A stretch of 64,000 bases of DNA from Gemmatimonadota bacterium (GCA_026706845.1 JAPOXY010000278.1:4131-68130); one strand, 5' to 3'; positions 59,242 to 64,000 are shown, counted from the stretch's first letter. Made by a program: numbers and translations. The notes: generated by a model from the letters alone, not told the origin.

Positions 59242-59940
59242 TTATTTGATCTCGAGCAATTCCAATTCAAATATGAGCGTTGAATTGGGACTGATTTGCC
59301 CGGCTTGCCGTGCGCCGTAGGCCAGATAGGATGGGATATAGAGTTCCCATTTCGATCCCGCGGGCATGAGTTGCAGGGCTTCTGTCCAGCCGGGAATGAG
59401 TTGATCCACGCGAAATTGCGCCGGTTCTCCGCGGCTGTAAGAACTGTCAAATTCCGTGCCGTCGAGCAATGTTCCGCGATAGTGACATACTACGGAGTCG
59501 GTTTTTTTGGGTTTCGCTCCGTCGCCGGCTTTGATCACTTTGTATTGCAAGCCGCTGTCCAATGTCACCACGCCTTCTTTTTTTCTGTTTTCCGCGAGGA
59601 AAGCCTCGCCAGCTTTTTGGTTTTCTGCTGCCATTTTGTTTTTCTCCGCAAGTTGTTGTGCCCTTTGTTCTTCCTGTATCTCGATTAGAAATTTTAGCGC
59701 TTCGTCTGAGGAAAGCAGGGGGGATTCTCCAGAATAACCATCTTTGAATCCCTGTACAAATACATCCATATCAATCGCCATGCCCTGTTGCTTTTTTAGT
59801 TGATCGGATAGATTTAAGCCGAGTGCATAACTCAGCTTGTGTTGCTTGTCCTCGAGGTTGACCTCTACAAATTCGGGTTTTTCCTGTGCCTGGCAACCCA
59901 GTAAGCCAGCGGCAATGCATACGGCAAAAAGACGCTTCAT
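59242..59940 (-). CDS. FKBP-type peptidyl-prolyl cis-trans isomerase (FkpA/Mip-like lipoprotein)
   Basis: Lipobox LLGC. C-terminal FKBP domain (…YRGTLLDGTEFDSSYSRGEPAQFRVDQLIPGWTEALQLMPAGSKWELYIPSYLAYG…). Confidence 0.85.
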   Translation of the reverse strand: MKRLFAVCIAAGLLGCQAQEKPEFVEVNLEDKQHKLSYALGLNLSDQLKKQQGMAIDMDVFVQGFKDGYSGESPLLSSDEALKFLIEIQEEQRAQQLAEKNKMAAENQKAGEAFLAENRKKEGVVTLDSGLQYKVIKAGDGAKPKKTDSVVCHYRGTLLDGTEFDSSYSRGEPAQFRVDQLIPGWTEALQLMPAGSKWELYIPSYLAYGARQAGQISPNSTLIFELELLEIK

Positions 59941-60014: not shown

Positions 60015-61538
60015 CTAAATAGCCTGAAATCGCGTTTTTACTTCTGATAGCACAATATCTGGAATATCCTCTGTGCGTTCAACTGCATAAACACAGATGT
60101 GGTCTGCAGTGGCAGCCCGCTGGCGAAATCGTTGGGCATCCCGGTTTTTCGCTACGTGAACAGCGGTTACCCGGTTTTCTTTTTGGATCAGAAATTGCAT
60201 CAGTGCATCGAGGTTGGTGATCTGCATATCTGTTATGAGAAAAATATCCACATGATTTTTGAGAAGGGGTTCCAGATCCGGCAGATGCAATGCTGTTCCA
60301 CCACCGAAGTAGCGGCACAATGCAAAGAATACGCGCTTGCGATCTCTTGAGAAATCCAGCACTTCTTTCCCACCGGCCTGGGCATCGCTAAAATTGTAAA
60401 CGGCCACGCGCTTGCCCCGTCGCAAATACGCATCGGCCGCGCATCCAGCGCCTAAGACTGCGTGGGATATTTCTCGACACGGATCGACCATACTGCCCGA
60501 GGAATCGACGATGACCACACAATCGGGTATGCCATCGCCGTCCCCGTGGGTTTCGCCATCTCGCCAGTTCCACATCTGGGAAATGCCCGGCATGACGCGC
60601 CCAAAACTCGTCCACACATCGATGTGCTGAACGGGTTTGCCAATTTCCCAGGGCGAATGGGAATGCGGATGTAATCCGCCCACTTTTTCCAGGGGCATGG
60701 TTTGCACGGGCAGGCGAAATGCGGATGCGCGCGCCATGTAAAACAAGAGGTCGGCATCCGAGGGCATGCCTTTGCCCCGGCCCATATCGGGCATCATGTT
60801 GGCGTCTTGTAGCTCGTCGGCAAAATCGCGCACCATTTCTCGAAAGGCGTAAAATCCCTGTTCGGCAAATTGTGCCATTCCCGCTGCGAGTTCGCCTGCG
60901 GAATACTGCTGGGTATCACCCATCATGCCACCCTGTCCATTCCCATCGTCCATTTCTTTTTGGATTAAGGGGGCAATCACCTGTGCGAATGCTCTAAGGC
61001 TATCGCCCCACTGCGAGGCGTCCAGATAGGGTATGCGCGCGAGTCGATCGACTTCGCCGCGGTCTTCTACACCCAAATTTTCACCCCAGAGACGCTGATA
61101 CAATGCCCGAATTACGTCTGTTACTTCACTCGATTCGGCGTGGCGATATACTTCGGGCAATTTCGATTCGCGCTCGCGCACGGCATGGGTATCGACTACC
61201 ACGTCCGAAAAATATTCGACTACTTGTTTGACCAATGCACCATCCAATAACACGGGTTTGAGCGCGGCATATAGCTTTAAGTGCGTCTCAAAATCCCAGG
61301 GACAAACGGTGTGATGCCCCACGCCGTGGTCCAGGAGTGCAGAGGTGGCGTCTTCTATGTCCATTACTTGCGCGAGGGCGGCCAGCCGATTGGCATTCAA
61401 TTGGATCACTTTGTCCATCATTTGAATGCTCGCGGCTTCGTCGCCTGTTTCGATTACTTCTGGCGTCGGCAATTCGGGAAATAGATGGCGCTTGCGAACA
61501 GCGGGCCAAACGCGCTGGATGATGTCGTTGAAGTTCAT
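60015..61538 (-). CDS. von Willebrand factor A domain protein
   Basis: MIDAS motif VVIVDSSGSM. ~300-aa N-terminal region of unknown function. 4-nt overlap with the upstream gene. Confidence 0.7.
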   Translation of the reverse strand: MNFNDIIQRVWPAVRKRHLFPELPTPEVIETGDEAASIQMMDKVIQLNANRLAALAQVMDIEDATSALLDHGVGHHTVCPWDFETHLKLYAALKPVLLDGALVKQVVEYFSDVVVDTHAVRERESKLPEVYRHAESSEVTDVIRALYQRLWGENLGVEDRGEVDRLARIPYLDASQWGDSLRAFAQVIAPLIQKEMDDGNGQGGMMGDTQQYSAGELAAGMAQFAEQGFYAFREMVRDFADELQDANMMPDMGRGKGMPSDADLLFYMARASAFRLPVQTMPLEKVGGLHPHSHSPWEIGKPVQHIDVWTSFGRVMPGISQMWNWRDGETHGDGDGIPDCVVIVDSSGSMVDPCREISHAVLGAGCAADAYLRRGKRVAVYNFSDAQAGGKEVLDFSRDRKRVFFALCRYFGGGTALHLPDLEPLLKNHVDIFLITDMQITNLDALMQFLIQKENRVTAVHVAKNRDAQRFRQRAATADHICVYAVERTEDIPDIVLSEVKTRFQAI

Positions 61539-62314
61539 GGTCGGTTTTTTGTTCCTCTGAGCATTTGGTCGCGGTGATAAATCGCGCCGCCTTCGGTGTT
61601 GCCCACACCTCCCAGGCGTCCATTGATGTGGATTTCGCCAGCTTGCATTTGTTCGCCGATAGATCTGCCAGCGTCTCCCGAGACTTCAATCCGTCCGTCG
61701 ATCATACCCGCGCCCAGATAGTGTCGGACATTTCCCTCGACCTTCAGGTGCCCCCCCATGAGCGAAATGCCCGTGAGGTCGCCCAGGTCTCCCACAATTG
61801 TCAGTGTGATGTCTTTGCGAAGGCGGTATCCCATAAGGGATAGACGCAAATCGTGACCCGTGAGATCGAGATGAATGTCCGATTGGGACGATGCGTTGCA
61901 AAAGGCCGATAAGAACAAGCCGAGGGGTTCCATGACAAAGAAAGCCGCGTCATTGCTTTGCAGGGCGTGCGCGCAAAATGCTTCGATATCGGTCATTTCC
62001 CAATCGATTTGTCCCACTATGTGCGATGCCGCAGTATAGGTCGATTCAATGGTTTTGCGGTCGGCTTGCCAGAGTCCCTCGCCGACGCATTCGTCGATCA
62101 GTGCGCTGTAAGCTGCTGTCAACCGATCCATTGTCTCGGTGTGAGATGCGAGAATTTTATCCATGGGCAGGACGCGCTTTTTTTCTGTGTCTTCGACGAA
62201 TTCGGCAAAGGGATTGCGTTTTGGGGATAGTAAGCCGTTGACGCGCTCTGCGTTTTCAGGGGTCAGATCGGATGGTGCAATCCGATCAAATTCGCGAAAT
62301 GGATTTTGTCGCAT
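61535..62314 (-). CDS. GXGXG-motif β-helix protein (GltB-C / FwdC-like domain) with an unknown N-terminal domain
   Basis: C-terminal repeats …IVGDLGDLTGISLMGGHLKVEGNVRHYLGAGMIDGRIEVSGDAGRSIGEQMQAGEIHINGRLGGVG… match the G-x-G-x-G β-helix pattern. Confidence 0.5.
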   Translation of the reverse strand: MRQNPFREFDRIAPSDLTPENAERVNGLLSPKRNPFAEFVEDTEKKRVLPMDKILASHTETMDRLTAAYSALIDECVGEGLWQADRKTIESTYTAASHIVGQIDWEMTDIEAFCAHALQSNDAAFFVMEPLGLFLSAFCNASSQSDIHLDLTGHDLRLSLMGYRLRKDITLTIVGDLGDLTGISLMGGHLKVEGNVRHYLGAGMIDGRIEVSGDAGRSIGEQMQAGEIHINGRLGGVGNTEGGAIYHRDQMLRGTKNRP

Positions 62315-62329
62315 GTCTGACTCCTGGGA

Positions 62330-63652
62330 TTACGAAAATTCTGGATGCACAGGCTCTTGTCCCAGATCGCGCATAATTTCCATGTAAATGGGGTGTTCGC
62401 CCTGAATGGGTTTTTCGTCGGTACCATTTAAGATGCGATTGGCAGTCATTAGAGCTGTTTGGATGCGCTCGCTCTGCTCGGTATAGCGCCGAAAGACCTG
62501 CCGCACCGCTTCTCGCGCTCTGTGAATGGGCAATACATCGTCCCGGTGGTCTTGCGTTTCTTCTTCGTCTCGCCATTGGATGCGGTGAGCACAGGTGTAT
62601 GGCAATATTGTGCGGATATGTTCGATATCCACTTCTTTGTCGCGCAGCACCCAGGCGAGTGCCTGTGCGTAGCGCCGGATGGAGATGGGCAGGCGATTAG
62701 ACGGGCATGTTTGTACTTCGTAACACAGATAGCCCGTGTAATGACAACCTTCGCCACAGACTTCATTTGTGCGTTTTTGTCCGTATTTGCAGCAGAAAGA
62801 CAATTCGGCCAAAAAGGTTCGAACATAGGCACTGGCATCGGCCTGGAAAGGCAGAGCGCTCATTTCACTGCGAATGGTTTCGCGCTCGGCACGCCCCAGG
62901 GTTGGTACGGACAAACGCTTGGAGATCGTTTTTCCATAATCCTCGCAAATCGCTTCTATCTCTGCTTCGGCATTGGGGTTGACCAGACAGGCCTGGAGTG
63001 CTTGCTCGCGTTGGGGATCTCGCAGGAGATGTGCGGGAGAGGATTCGGTGCCGATCATCCAGGACAAATTCGCGCCCGGATATTTGGATTCCACCATTAC
63101 GTCAAAGCGATCCAGAAGGGGGATAACGATGGTATTTGTTCCGCGGTCCTGATAATTGGCCGTTGCGAACAAACAGTATTCATCATTGATTTGCATCTGG
63201 TTCAAGTAGGACCAGTTGCCGCGATCCACGCCGTTGAGGATCAAACTCTGCTTTGTTTCCGGCAGGCGGTTGATTTCATCTACGACTTTGACGGGTAGGA
63301 CAGAAAATGCCGACCACACCACATCTTCTTCGCCGCGGTTGAGCGCGCCGAGGTTTGGGCGTCCGACAATTTTTTCTTCGGTCTGCTCGGGATGGCCACT
63401 TACTTCGGCTTCCCACACAGCTCCCAATGGCATGCGATATAGTAGCGCGCCGATATACTCTGCCGCCGTTGTTTTGCCCAGGCCGGGTTCGCCTACGATC
63501 AGGATTTTGCCACCTAATAGTCCCGTCAGGGTGCTGAGCAACAAAGCGGCATTGTGTTTTTGTCCCTCAATCTCCAGGTCTGCCCGGTTAAAATACAACC
63601 GCTCTTGGATAAAGGTCAAAATATCGCGTATTGTTGTCTGTAAGTCGGCCAT
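62330..63652 (-). CDS. MoxR-like AAA+ ATPase with a C-terminal Cys/His-rich extension
   Basis: Walker A IVGEPGLGKTT, sensor VVDEINR. Cys cluster FCCKYGQKRTNEVCGEGCHYTGYLCYEVQTCP (residues ~287-316). 440 aa. Confidence 0.75.
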   Translation of the reverse strand: MADLQTTIRDILTFIQERLYFNRADLEIEGQKHNAALLLSTLTGLLGGKILIVGEPGLGKTTAAEYIGALLYRMPLGAVWEAEVSGHPEQTEEKIVGRPNLGALNRGEEDVVWSAFSVLPVKVVDEINRLPETKQSLILNGVDRGNWSYLNQMQINDEYCLFATANYQDRGTNTIVIPLLDRFDVMVESKYPGANLSWMIGTESSPAHLLRDPQREQALQACLVNPNAEAEIEAICEDYGKTISKRLSVPTLGRAERETIRSEMSALPFQADASAYVRTFLAELSFCCKYGQKRTNEVCGEGCHYTGYLCYEVQTCPSNRLPISIRRYAQALAWVLRDKEVDIEHIRTILPYTCAHRIQWRDEEETQDHRDDVLPIHRAREAVRQVFRRYTEQSERIQTALMTANRILNGTDEKPIQGEHPIYMEIMRDLGQEPVHPEFS

Positions 63653-63659
63653 TTTGACC

Positions 63660-64000
63660 TCAGTCTGCTTGAGAAGAGGCGGCGGAGCGTCGGCGCAGCC
63701 ATTCGACGGTGAGTAGTAGCAATACGGCGAAGGCGATCAGGAATGTTGCCACGGCGAGGATGGTTGGGCTGATTTGCTCGCGGATGCCCGCCCACATCTG
63801 GCGCGGAATGGTGCGTTGTTCTATGCCGCCCATGAAAAGGACGACTACTACTTCGTCAAAAGATGTTGCAAATGCGAAGAGCGCGCCAGAAATAACGCCC
63901 GGTGCGATTAGCGGCAGTTGTACTCTGCGAAACGTGAGGATCGGTGAGGCACCAAGACTTGCGGCAGCGCGCGTCAGGATTGTATCAAAGGCGGATAGGG
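63660..64000 (-). CDS. ABC-transporter inner-membrane permease (PotC/ModB-like), 3' portion. The gene continues beyond the window end
   Basis: Minus-strand frame open to the window edge. It translates to …LTFRRVQLPLIAPGVISGALFAFATSFDEVVVVLFMGG… (the EAA-loop permease signature). Stop at 63660-63662, 8 nt before the AAA ATPase start. Confidence 0.7.
   Translation of the reverse strand, partial: LSAFDTILTRAAASLGASPILTFRRVQLPLIAPGVISGALFAFATSFDEVVVVLFMGGIEQRTIPRQMWAGIREQISPTILAVATFLIAFAVLLLLTVEWLRRRSAASSQAD

Follow-up and report, generated by a model that had tools for sequence, protein, structure and literature searches.

Three genes at one end of the window (the whole 64,000-nucleotide stretch of DNA that was analyzed) constitute a real, strongly conserved unit that is inherited together across at least five phyla. 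Translation confirmed three open reading frames, which, like the other window features given with coordinates below, lie on the minus strand. The first encodes a MoxR-class AAA+ ATPase of 440 residues (62330..63652); the second, a 259-residue middle protein (61535..62314) whose disordered, tagged tail is followed by a four-helix domain and then by a short β-helix of the FwdC type; and the third, a 507-residue VWA protein (60015..61538), the putative adaptor, with a possibly zincin-like N-domain, a conserved linker and a VWA domain. The explanation we favor, at close to but short of an even chance, is that the triad is a self-contained MoxR–VWA remodeling machine for which the tagged β-helix protein is the dedicated partner or client.

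Organization and distribution of the triad

The first-pass annotation had described the triad as tightly coupled, and would have given it up had the middle protein shown no significant GXGXG-domain hit or had the three genes not been co-conserved in related genomes; the triad withstands both checks, being real, tightly coupled and co-conserved. Of the two intergenic gaps it reported, the 15-nt gap between the ATPase and middle genes stands and contains an AGGAG sequence, whereas the supposed 4-nt gap is really a 4-nt overlap (ATGA) that places the start of the VWA gene over the stop of the middle gene. We fetched 88 loci drawn from the 341 species genomes that hold a relative of the ATPase, and the order ATPase, middle, VWA was present in approximately 80, across at least five phyla and in taxa comprising Latescibacterota (to which the organism of the window belongs), Gemmatimonadota, Thermodesulfobacteriota, Binatia and Entotheonellaceae. 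Because the same order recurs this widely, the arrangement is not due to chance. The operon is split in L022, L023 and L025, where the middle and VWA genes still adjoin one another elsewhere in the same genome. Between Latescibacterota and either Thermodesulfobacteriota or Binatia, the ATPases are 57-60% identical. Among the listed loci, ATPase identity is 65-97% in Latescibacterota and 55-61% in Thermodesulfobacteriota and Binatia, with some Latescibacterota loci (L041 and L062) falling at 58-60% despite the grouping by taxon seen otherwise.

Comparison of the flanking genes revealed no neighbor conserved across phyla beside the triad. The ABC permease that had been joined to the operon is present at the window edge (63660..64000), where the 3' end of its gene encodes by translation a BPD_transp-type C-terminus with an EAA-type loop; the gene runs past the window end and its stop lies 7 nt before the ATPase ATG. 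The copy of this gene in L001 carries PF00528. Its link to the triad, however, is lineage-specific, with permease clusters c10 and c14 found only in close Latescibacterota, and unrelated housekeeping genes flank the triad in other phyla; the permease is thus a neighbor outside the conserved module. Downstream of the triad lies an FKBP-type PPIase gene (59242-59940; Pfam FKBP_N and FKBP_C) with a lipoprotein-like signal peptide, a placement restricted to loci from Latescibacterota and Gemmatimonadota. A terminator scan put the first strong terminator-like hairpin just after this gene (59216-59196), and transcription of the unit probably ends there. In Binatia loci, Amidohydro_2 genes adjoin the triad, and in L001 TA and Abi-like genes occur a few kb upstream.

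The combination of a MoxR ATPase, a vWA protein and a third protein is the hallmark of the ternary conflict or defense systems of the kind treated by Kaur et al. 2020, in which the dedicated third protein is thought to be restructured by the ATPase and its vWA co-chaperone (PMC7159879). The triad follows the same three-component logic, and under such a reading the β-helix protein would be the third component, with a (pseudo)peptidase acting in a proteolytic threshold switch. The sparse distribution of ATPase relatives (341 of 185,579 species genomes), the paralog expansion in the sister system described below, with its nearby AbiEii gene and group II intron, and the genes upstream in L001 are all consistent with this. 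The third protein, however, is a GXGXG β-helix rather than a VMAP, iSTAND, FtsH or β-propeller component, effector domains are absent, the neighbors are housekeeping genes, and PADLOC gave nothing but P-loop noise. Moreover, the components are extremely conserved rather than diversifying (ATPase identity is 57-60% across phyla, with many invariant columns, and in the listed loci it clusters by taxon save for some such as L041 and L062), and no relatives were found on viral contigs. The terms GXGXG, FwdC and glutamate synthase have zero occurrences in PMC7159879. We consider a role in conflict highly improbable.

The ATPase and its VWA partner

The ATPase scores above the Pfam gathering thresholds for AAA_5 (26.7 bits against 22) and AAA_lid_2 (26.1 against 22.7) and under that for AAA_3; a Pfam search found no CbbQ_C domain, and a profile search of the PDB gave a single relative, the MoxR-like protein 2r44 (E 0.002). 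Its AAA+ core is complete, comprising Walker A (GEPGLGKTT, 63467..63493), Walker B (VKVVDEI, 63272-63292), sensor 1, the arginine finger and sensor 2. GEPGLGKTT, VVDE, N166, R182 and R320 are retained in 83/83 sequences, and G57, G59, K60, T61, D125, E126, N166 and R182 are individually invariant in the same set. Between the two Walker motifs lies an acidic block of invariant columns, G86-P99 (GHPEQTEEKIVGRP, containing GHPEQTEEK; 63356..63397), which sits where the helix-2 insert of the MoxR clade is expected, an assignment made by position only. This block may be a docking site for the VWA domain, whose gene is the genomic partner of the ATPase gene, downstream of it in approximately 80 of the 88 loci.

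The Cys/His-rich cluster reported in the first pass lies at exactly the coordinates given there (62705..62794). Its residues C287, C299, C303, H304 and C316, located in the lid four residues before the sensor-2 residue R320, are invariant in all 83 distinct homologs, while the nearby C288 and C310 are variable. This Cys4-His site beside sensor 2 probably either binds Zn in a structural role or senses redox state and so adjusts the ATPase. The sister-system ATPase is without the cluster, which is therefore not essential to this kind of machine.

The VWA domain of the 507-residue protein (60018..60521) carries a complete MIDAS, composed of DSSGS (60492-60506) together with T415 and D437, and none of 70 sequences departs from this DxSxS…T…D motif (D345, S347, S349, T415 and D437). 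The domain adopts a Rossmann-like VWA fold resembling those of NorD and BchD. It scores 13.7 bits against Pfam VWA_2, below the cut-off of 27, and a weak match to VWA_2 recurs in 15 of the 15 family members tested, with a best E of 6e-6. Preceding the domain is a linker (60534..60713; residues 276-335, PHSHSPWE…WTSFG) that is predicted to be disordered (pLDDT <50), in which P291, H294, W297, E298, W309, T310, S311 and G313 show little or no variation. This highly conserved disordered segment is probably an interaction segment.

The N-domain of the same protein contains a degenerate zincin motif that was missed in the first pass (LDHGVGHHTVCPWD; 61293..61334), in which H71-G72-x-x-H75 replaces HExxH. 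H71 and H75 are invariant in 70/70 sequences, as is D112 (61203-61205), a candidate, and likely, third metal ligand. Position 72 is glycine in 68 and alanine in 2, such that the HExxH of zincin metallopeptidases reads H-G/A-x-x-H in all 70 and the catalytic glutamate is therefore lost. In alignment, the motif falls opposite an intact HEVGH/HEIGH in sister-system proteins (BLASTP E 8e-5), and the model shows a helix, three strands, a further helix and the motif helix in succession, an order that a zincin could have. On this one motif alignment and the secondary-structure order, the N-domain may be an inactive, zincin-like domain. Sequence searches returned no Pfam or PDB match for the N-domain, with Peptidase_Mx reached at E 0.035 on a sister protein only, and fold searches returned only VWA matches, which swamped the N-domain.

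The ATPase and the VWA protein each contain invariant residues that resemble metal ligands, which invites comparison with chaperones of metal centers. In such a scheme, the two proteins would bring a metalloenzyme encoded elsewhere to maturity in the manner of NorQD, CoxDE and CbbQO, with the Cys4-His and HxxxH/D sites handling the metal and the β-helix serving as a client-docking adaptor. The model for the adaptor role is FwdC, which binds FwdA, and the β-helix of GltS, which binds the catalytic domains of that enzyme. The NorD- and BchD-like VWA fold and the Amidohydro_2 genes of the Binatia loci lend some weight to this scheme, as does the precedent of several characterized MoxR–VWA pairs that perform metal-cluster insertion or enzyme activation (PMC7159879). 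Against it, no metalloenzyme that could be the client recurs next to the triad from one phylum to another, the sister-system ATPase lacks the Cys cluster, the ABC transporter link is lineage-specific, and ten tagged β-helix paralogs in one operon are hard to see as adaptors of a single enzyme. The metal- or cofactor-insertion or maturation role proposed in the first pass is possible but, with no conserved metalloenzyme client beside the triad, unsupported; it therefore stays an analogy with other MoxR–VWA pairs, and we regard it as rather unlikely. A narrower version, in which the pair would insert metal into a tetrapyrrole-like substrate as do the chelatases BchI/BchD or CobS/CobT, has a very slim chance. 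The ATPase scores 21.4 bits against TIGR02030 (BchI), for which the cut-off is 466.95, and in its predicted structure the VWA protein lacks the AAA-like N-half of BchD. No locus examined holds a BchH/CobN-like gene, and this missing substrate-binding subunit effectively rules a chelatase out.

The middle protein and a sister system

The C-terminal part of the middle protein is similar to FmdC/FwdC chains of known structure in the PDB (E 7.7e-11 and 3.8e-8) and forms a GXGXG right-handed β-helix of approximately four 19-residue coils (61556..61879; residues 146-253). The protein is thus of the FwdC/GltS β-helix type by chain match and fold, as had been recognized in the first pass, though it lies below the curated cut-offs for both Pfam GXGXG (PF01493; 21.5 against 32.5) and TIGR03122 (60 against 130.65). 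Its orthologs occupy the same position in approximately 80 loci at 33-93% identity, and all share the N-terminal tail and helical domain. The AF2 model has a pLDDT of 79.8 with low confidence for residues 1-47, and it is within this disordered tail that a nearly invariant NPFxEF motif nevertheless occurs (NPFAEF, 62198..62215; residues 34-39). N34, P35 and F39 are each conserved in 49/50 sequences and F36 in 48/50, and position 38 is E or D in 45/50; a second copy (NPFREF, 62288-62305; residues 4-9) is present in long forms only. The first-pass annotation did not mention this tail motif.

Since its product resembles FwdC/FmdC and the C-terminal domain of GltS in both sequence and fold, the middle gene might be taken to encode a FwdC- or GltB-domain subunit of the usual sort, belonging to a C1 or glutamate enzyme, its position being incidental. 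We give this next to no credence. Relative to the FwdC/FmdC/FhcC proteins and the glutamate synthase C-terminal domain, the middle protein has only about four coils and gains a domain of four helices and a disordered tail bearing the tag, unique features found in all orthologs, and its scores fall under both curated cut-offs. Furthermore, the middle gene never adjoins fwd, fhc or glt genes, unlike the FwdC family; fwdA/B/D, fhc and gltB/D genes were found neither in the window nor in any locus examined. An ordinary subunit is ruled out by the gene order fixed in approximately 80 loci.

A sister system, probably archaeal, was found on L094, L090 and L095. Its ATPase is homologous to that of the window (31% identity, E 2.5e-56), its zincin-VWA protein is homologous to the 507-residue protein (E 2e-19 and 8e-5), and its tail–helical–β-helix proteins are homologous to the middle protein, with all genes co-oriented. 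Each operon contains 6 to 10 β-helix paralogs; where there are ten, accompanied by a single zincin-VWA protein, all ten have a common N-terminal tag (AASKRFGKYKKEE) and a common C-terminal end. The sister tag is SKRFGxYKxE in place of the NPFxEF of the triad, the sister HExxH is intact (HEIGH/HEVGH) where the triad has HGxxH, and the L094 ATPase lacks the Cys4-His cluster that the triad ATPase possesses. An AbiEii gene and a group II intron lie nearby.

A proposed remodeling machine

In the general MoxR–VWA mechanism, the MIDAS captures a peptide, which is followed by ATP-driven release (PMC7159879). For the remodeling machine that we favor, the 507-residue protein would serve as the adaptor, with the VWA/MIDAS site, the inactive, putatively zincin-like domain (HGxxH), or both capturing the NPFxEF tail of the β-helix protein. 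The VWA domain or the conserved linker would dock on the ATPase hexamer, possibly at the acidic GHPEQTEEK block, and ATP hydrolysis would remodel the β-helix protein through assembly, release or unfolding. On this proposal the β-helix protein would be a dedicated client or co-adaptor and would not belong to formylmethanofuran dehydrogenase or to glutamate synthase. Complete conservation of the catalytic and MIDAS residues, the recurring gene order and translational coupling of the genes, the lack of any other neighbor shared among phyla, the near-invariance of NPFxEF within a disordered tail and the alignment of the N-domain motif with a true HExxH support such a machine, and the many tagged paralogs per one adaptor and one ATPase in the sister system are as a client relationship predicts. 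Against it, the tag tolerates some variation at its acidic position 38, the zincin assignment of the N-domain depends on one motif alignment and on secondary-structure order, and it is equally possible that the β-helix protein serves as adaptor to a client encoded elsewhere. A bolder proposal, which we advance tentatively and hold to be somewhat doubtful, is that the triad and its sister represent an unrecognized class of AAA+ machine, in which a MoxR ATPase, together with an adaptor of (pseudo)zincin–VWA type, would read a short N-terminal tag and process or assemble FwdC-like β-helix proteins, at the expense of ATP, into a higher-order scaffold or filament, with proteolysis by the sister HExxH as an addition. 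If tag-directed assembly is true, it would represent a new pathway shared by a number of uncultured bacterial phyla and, probably, by archaea.

MoxR–VWA pairs are widespread and, to our knowledge, few have a known client. Compared with the NorQ/NorD, CbbQ/CbbO, CoxD/CoxE and RavA/ViaA pairs, the triad has a third obligatory gene in between, a very divergent ATPase carrying a Cys4-His cluster, a VWA partner with a putative pseudo-zincin N-domain, and no linked client enzyme gene. Searches of Pfam, NCBIfam, PADLOC, the PDB and the literature yielded no family, structural relative or publication in which the triad is described, which bears out the earlier suggestion that the system is undescribed. 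Should the β-helix proteins prove to be clients, they would define a new functional type in the MoxR family and provide a role for 'FwdC-like' genes that automated annotation now mislabels. The sister system and the triad offer a natural comparison, of an active with an inactive peptidase and of many clients with one, that makes recognition by the VWA adaptor directly approachable by experiment.

Gene order and conservation of the triad

Our analysis shows that the minus strand between window positions 63652 and 60015 is occupied by three ORFs, which encode, in order, a MoxR-class AAA+ ATPase (440 aa), a β-helix protein (259 aa, hereafter the middle protein) and a VWA protein (507 aa). The 15-nt gap reported in the first-pass annotation is present between the ATPase stop and the start of the middle gene, and it contains an AGGAG sequence. 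What had been described as a 4-nt gap at the second junction is a 4-nt overlap, since the sequence ATGA is common to the stop of the middle gene and the start of the VWA gene. Upstream, the coding sequence for an ABC permease C-terminus ends 7 nt ahead of the ATPase gene. Downstream, a gene for an FKBP-type isomerase (59242-59940) is followed by the first strong terminator-like hairpin. This isomerase begins with a lipoprotein-like signal, MKRLFAVCIAAGLLGCQ, and is probably periplasmic; a partnership with the cytoplasmic triad is unlikely, even though its position implies co-transcription.

The triad lies in a run of ~27 kb of co-oriented, almost unbroken minus-strand genes (36841-64000). Downstream of the triad, the run includes the FKBP gene, an RluA-type pseudouridine synthase, two short epimerase-like genes and a class-III aminotransferase, and it also holds a type I phosphodiesterase, a DUF6785/DUF6784 membrane protein, two GFO/IDH/MocA oxidoreductases and GCS2. 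Neither tRNA genes nor Rfam families at gathering score were found in the whole 64-kb window.

The three genes are conserved together: when 88 loci were searched by tblastn with the three window proteins, the order ATPase, middle, VWA recurred in ~80 of them. These loci derive from Latescibacterota, Gemmatimonadota, Thermodesulfobacteriota (Syntrophaceae, Syntrophorhabdus), Binatia and Entotheonellaceae, and most of those lacking the full order are cut by contig ends. Another, L004, carries a solitary copy of the middle gene (L004:4291-5079, protein P0026), apparently frameshifted in its central part; it is surrounded by numerous short ORFs, neither an ATPase nor a VWA gene is close by, and it looks like a decaying duplicate. 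Compared across phyla with their window counterparts, the ATPase shows ~57-60% identity, the VWA protein 42-50% and the middle protein 33-40%. At least 952 homologues of the ATPase and at least 940 of the VWA protein turned up in database searches, against only 30 of the middle protein in a word-seeded search, a difference accounted for by the faster evolution of the middle protein. In a scan of one genome per species, an ATPase relative was present in 341 genomes, and the window was placed in Candidatus Latescibacterota (96-97% identity). The triad is well defined, widespread in uncultured lineages, and testable.

The operon is split in three genomes of one Latescibacterota lineage, which nevertheless keep all three genes: the ATPase gene is found beside ABC permeases (L022, L023, L025), while the middle and VWA genes lie together with an FKBP gene (L096:6001-8490) on the same chromosome of 5.66 Mb, ~3 Mb distant. 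Of the three genes, the middle and VWA genes are the most tightly linked.

Clustering of all flanking ORFs from the 88 loci revealed no partner conserved across phyla, and the module is therefore autonomous. Permeases adjoin the triad in close Latescibacterota only, so the ABC permease, previously taken for a part of the operon, is a neighbour of limited range. FKBP, SDR/epimerase and aminotransferase genes are restricted to Latescibacterota and Gemmatimonadota, gmk, rpoZ, HD and UbiE genes to Syntrophales, and Amidohydro_2 to Binatia. For want of cross-phylum conservation, the ABC transporter, FKBP, epimerases, aminotransferase and Amidohydro_2 were ruled out as parts of the system. Housekeeping genes among the neighbours, together with the extreme sequence conservation of the triad, argue against the alternative that it serves in defence or conflict. 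This alternative is unlikely, as effectors are absent, matches in PADLOC amount to P-loop noise only, and a scan of viral contigs yielded no relatives.

Around the triad, parts of the window run (SDR/epimerases, FKBP, YhbY, RluA, ADH, aminotransferase) recur on contigs L005, L007, L033 and L035, some of which are labelled Gemmatimonadetes. Beyond the point corresponding to the right end of the window, a close relative (L001:2564-6401) has PDDEXK_9, HTH, HEPN/Abi_C and Gp49-like genes, of toxin–antitoxin or abortive-infection type, which separate the three solute-binding-protein genes of the ABC transporter from its permease genes.

Features of the ATPase and the VWA protein

The ATPase scores above the Pfam gathering thresholds of both AAA_5 and AAA_lid_2 and carries Walker A (GEPGLGKTT), Walker B (VVDE), sensor-1 (N166), arginine finger (R182) and sensor-2 (R320) motifs, with all catalytic residues kept in 83 of 83 sequences. 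Equally invariant in this set are C287, C299, C303, H304 and C316, which form a Cys/His cluster ending four residues ahead of R320. A phmmer search of the PDB found no relative of the ATPase, and the sole match by profile was the MoxR-like protein 2r44 (E 0.002). Names given to cluster members are generic only ('MoxR-like ATPase', 'Mg-chelatase subunit ChlI', 'hypothetical protein').

In the AF2 model of the VWA protein (pLDDT 78), the N-domain is confidently predicted, helical and holds three short strands; a linker connects it to the VWA domain at the C-terminus. Although the linker (residues 276-335) is predicted to be disordered, H294, W297 and E298 within it are invariant. The MIDAS residues are complete and kept in 70/70 sequences, as are D70, H71, H75 and D112 of the N-domain; C79 and D82 are kept in 69/70, and position 72 holds G in 68 sequences and A in 2. 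Pfam at lenient thresholds, applied to 15 family members and to isolated N-domains, gave weak VWA_2 matches and nothing else; PDB searches with single proteins and profiles found no match for the N-domain, and Pfam, PDB profile and fold searches together assigned it to no peptidase family or fold. In a sister system described below, however, the homologous protein has LIHEIGHYMTFPR where the window protein has LLDHGVGHHTVCPWD, and neither family varies at H71, H75 or D112. Because of this, the N-domain is most simply read, on sequence grounds, as a zincin-like domain that has kept its metal ligands and lost its catalytic Glu. Such metal-like ligands, and analogy with other MoxR–VWA systems, could point to a chaperone that inserts a cofactor into an unlinked enzyme, a plausible role of fairly low probability, for which nothing else speaks positively. 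Roles as a chelatase or as a true Fwd/GltS subunit were ruled out by curated scores and missing partner genes.

At one locus (L032:8202-11795), the VWA gene is broken by ~2 kb with two opposite-strand ORFs (cluster c250, 372 and 250 aa), probably a mobile-element insertion.

The tagged β-helix protein and a proposed mechanism

Residues 167-245 of the middle protein match PDB chains of FmdC, FwdC and FhcC (E 7.7e-11 to 2.5e-3); for both Pfam GXGXG and TIGR03122, the protein stays under the curated cut-off. In its AF2 model (pLDDT 79.8), residues 1-47 form a disordered tail, residues 50-141 four helices and residues 146-253 a β-helix of about four 19-residue coils. The tail bears a conserved NPFxEF motif, with conservation of 49/50 for each of N34, P35 and F39 and of 48/50 for F36, and with an acidic residue at position 38 in 45/50; a second NPFxEF (residues 4-9) occurs in long forms only.

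The triad belongs with the MoxR–VWA chaperone systems, but differs from those known in that its third component, which is obligatory, and the architecture of its adaptor are both new. We found no curated family, solved structure or paper covering it, literature searches on GXGXG, FwdC, MoxR, vWA, metallopeptidase and DUF2201 returned no description, and the main MoxR–vWA survey (PMC7159879) does not mention GXGXG. In MoxR–VWA pairs, the vWA MIDAS takes up an extended peptide, and a conformational change driven by the ATPase ring releases or assembles the bound protein (PMC7159879). The sole constant companion of the present ATPase–VWA pair is the middle protein with its tagged disordered tail, and in the sister system there is one adaptor and one ATPase for many tagged paralogues. 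From this we propose that the VWA protein would capture the NPFxEF tail with its MIDAS site, with the groove of the dead peptidase domain, or with both, and would then bring the β-helix protein to the ATPase, which would remodel it. Gene content, conservation, motifs and folds come straight from the data, while the contacts, the way in which remodelling runs and its outcome in the cell are inferred.

Searched exhaustively as a profile, the middle protein matched thousands of GXGXG proteins, most of them FwdC-like, and some of these matches led to the sister-system contigs L090, L095 and L094. The expanded system at L094:5576-16924 (JGI Ga0315281_10001715) lies on a single strand: an ATPase homologue comes first, followed by three β-helix paralogues, then a zincin-VWA protein and finally seven more β-helix paralogues. 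The ATPase is 31% identical to that of the window (E 2.5e-56), with AAA_5 and AAA_lid_2 present and the Cys cluster absent. The VWA homologue (572 aa) contains an intact HEIGH motif, and its two ends align to the window VWA protein (E 2e-19 and 8e-5). All ten β-helix paralogues have in common an N-terminal tag, AASKRFGKYKKEE, and a C-terminal end, HGKIFHKGKLIVDK. The sister system is represented on further contigs as well (L090:1-7482, L095:14-5657, L091, L092 and L089), which carry tandem arrays of GXGXG/FwdC-like paralogues; some of these paralogues score above the cut-off of TIGR03122 ('FwdC') and would therefore be misannotated by automated pipelines as subunit C of formylmethanofuran dehydrogenase. 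The flanks of the L094 system (cupin-type GPI, AlaRS, group II intron RT, AbiEii) hint at an archaeal host.
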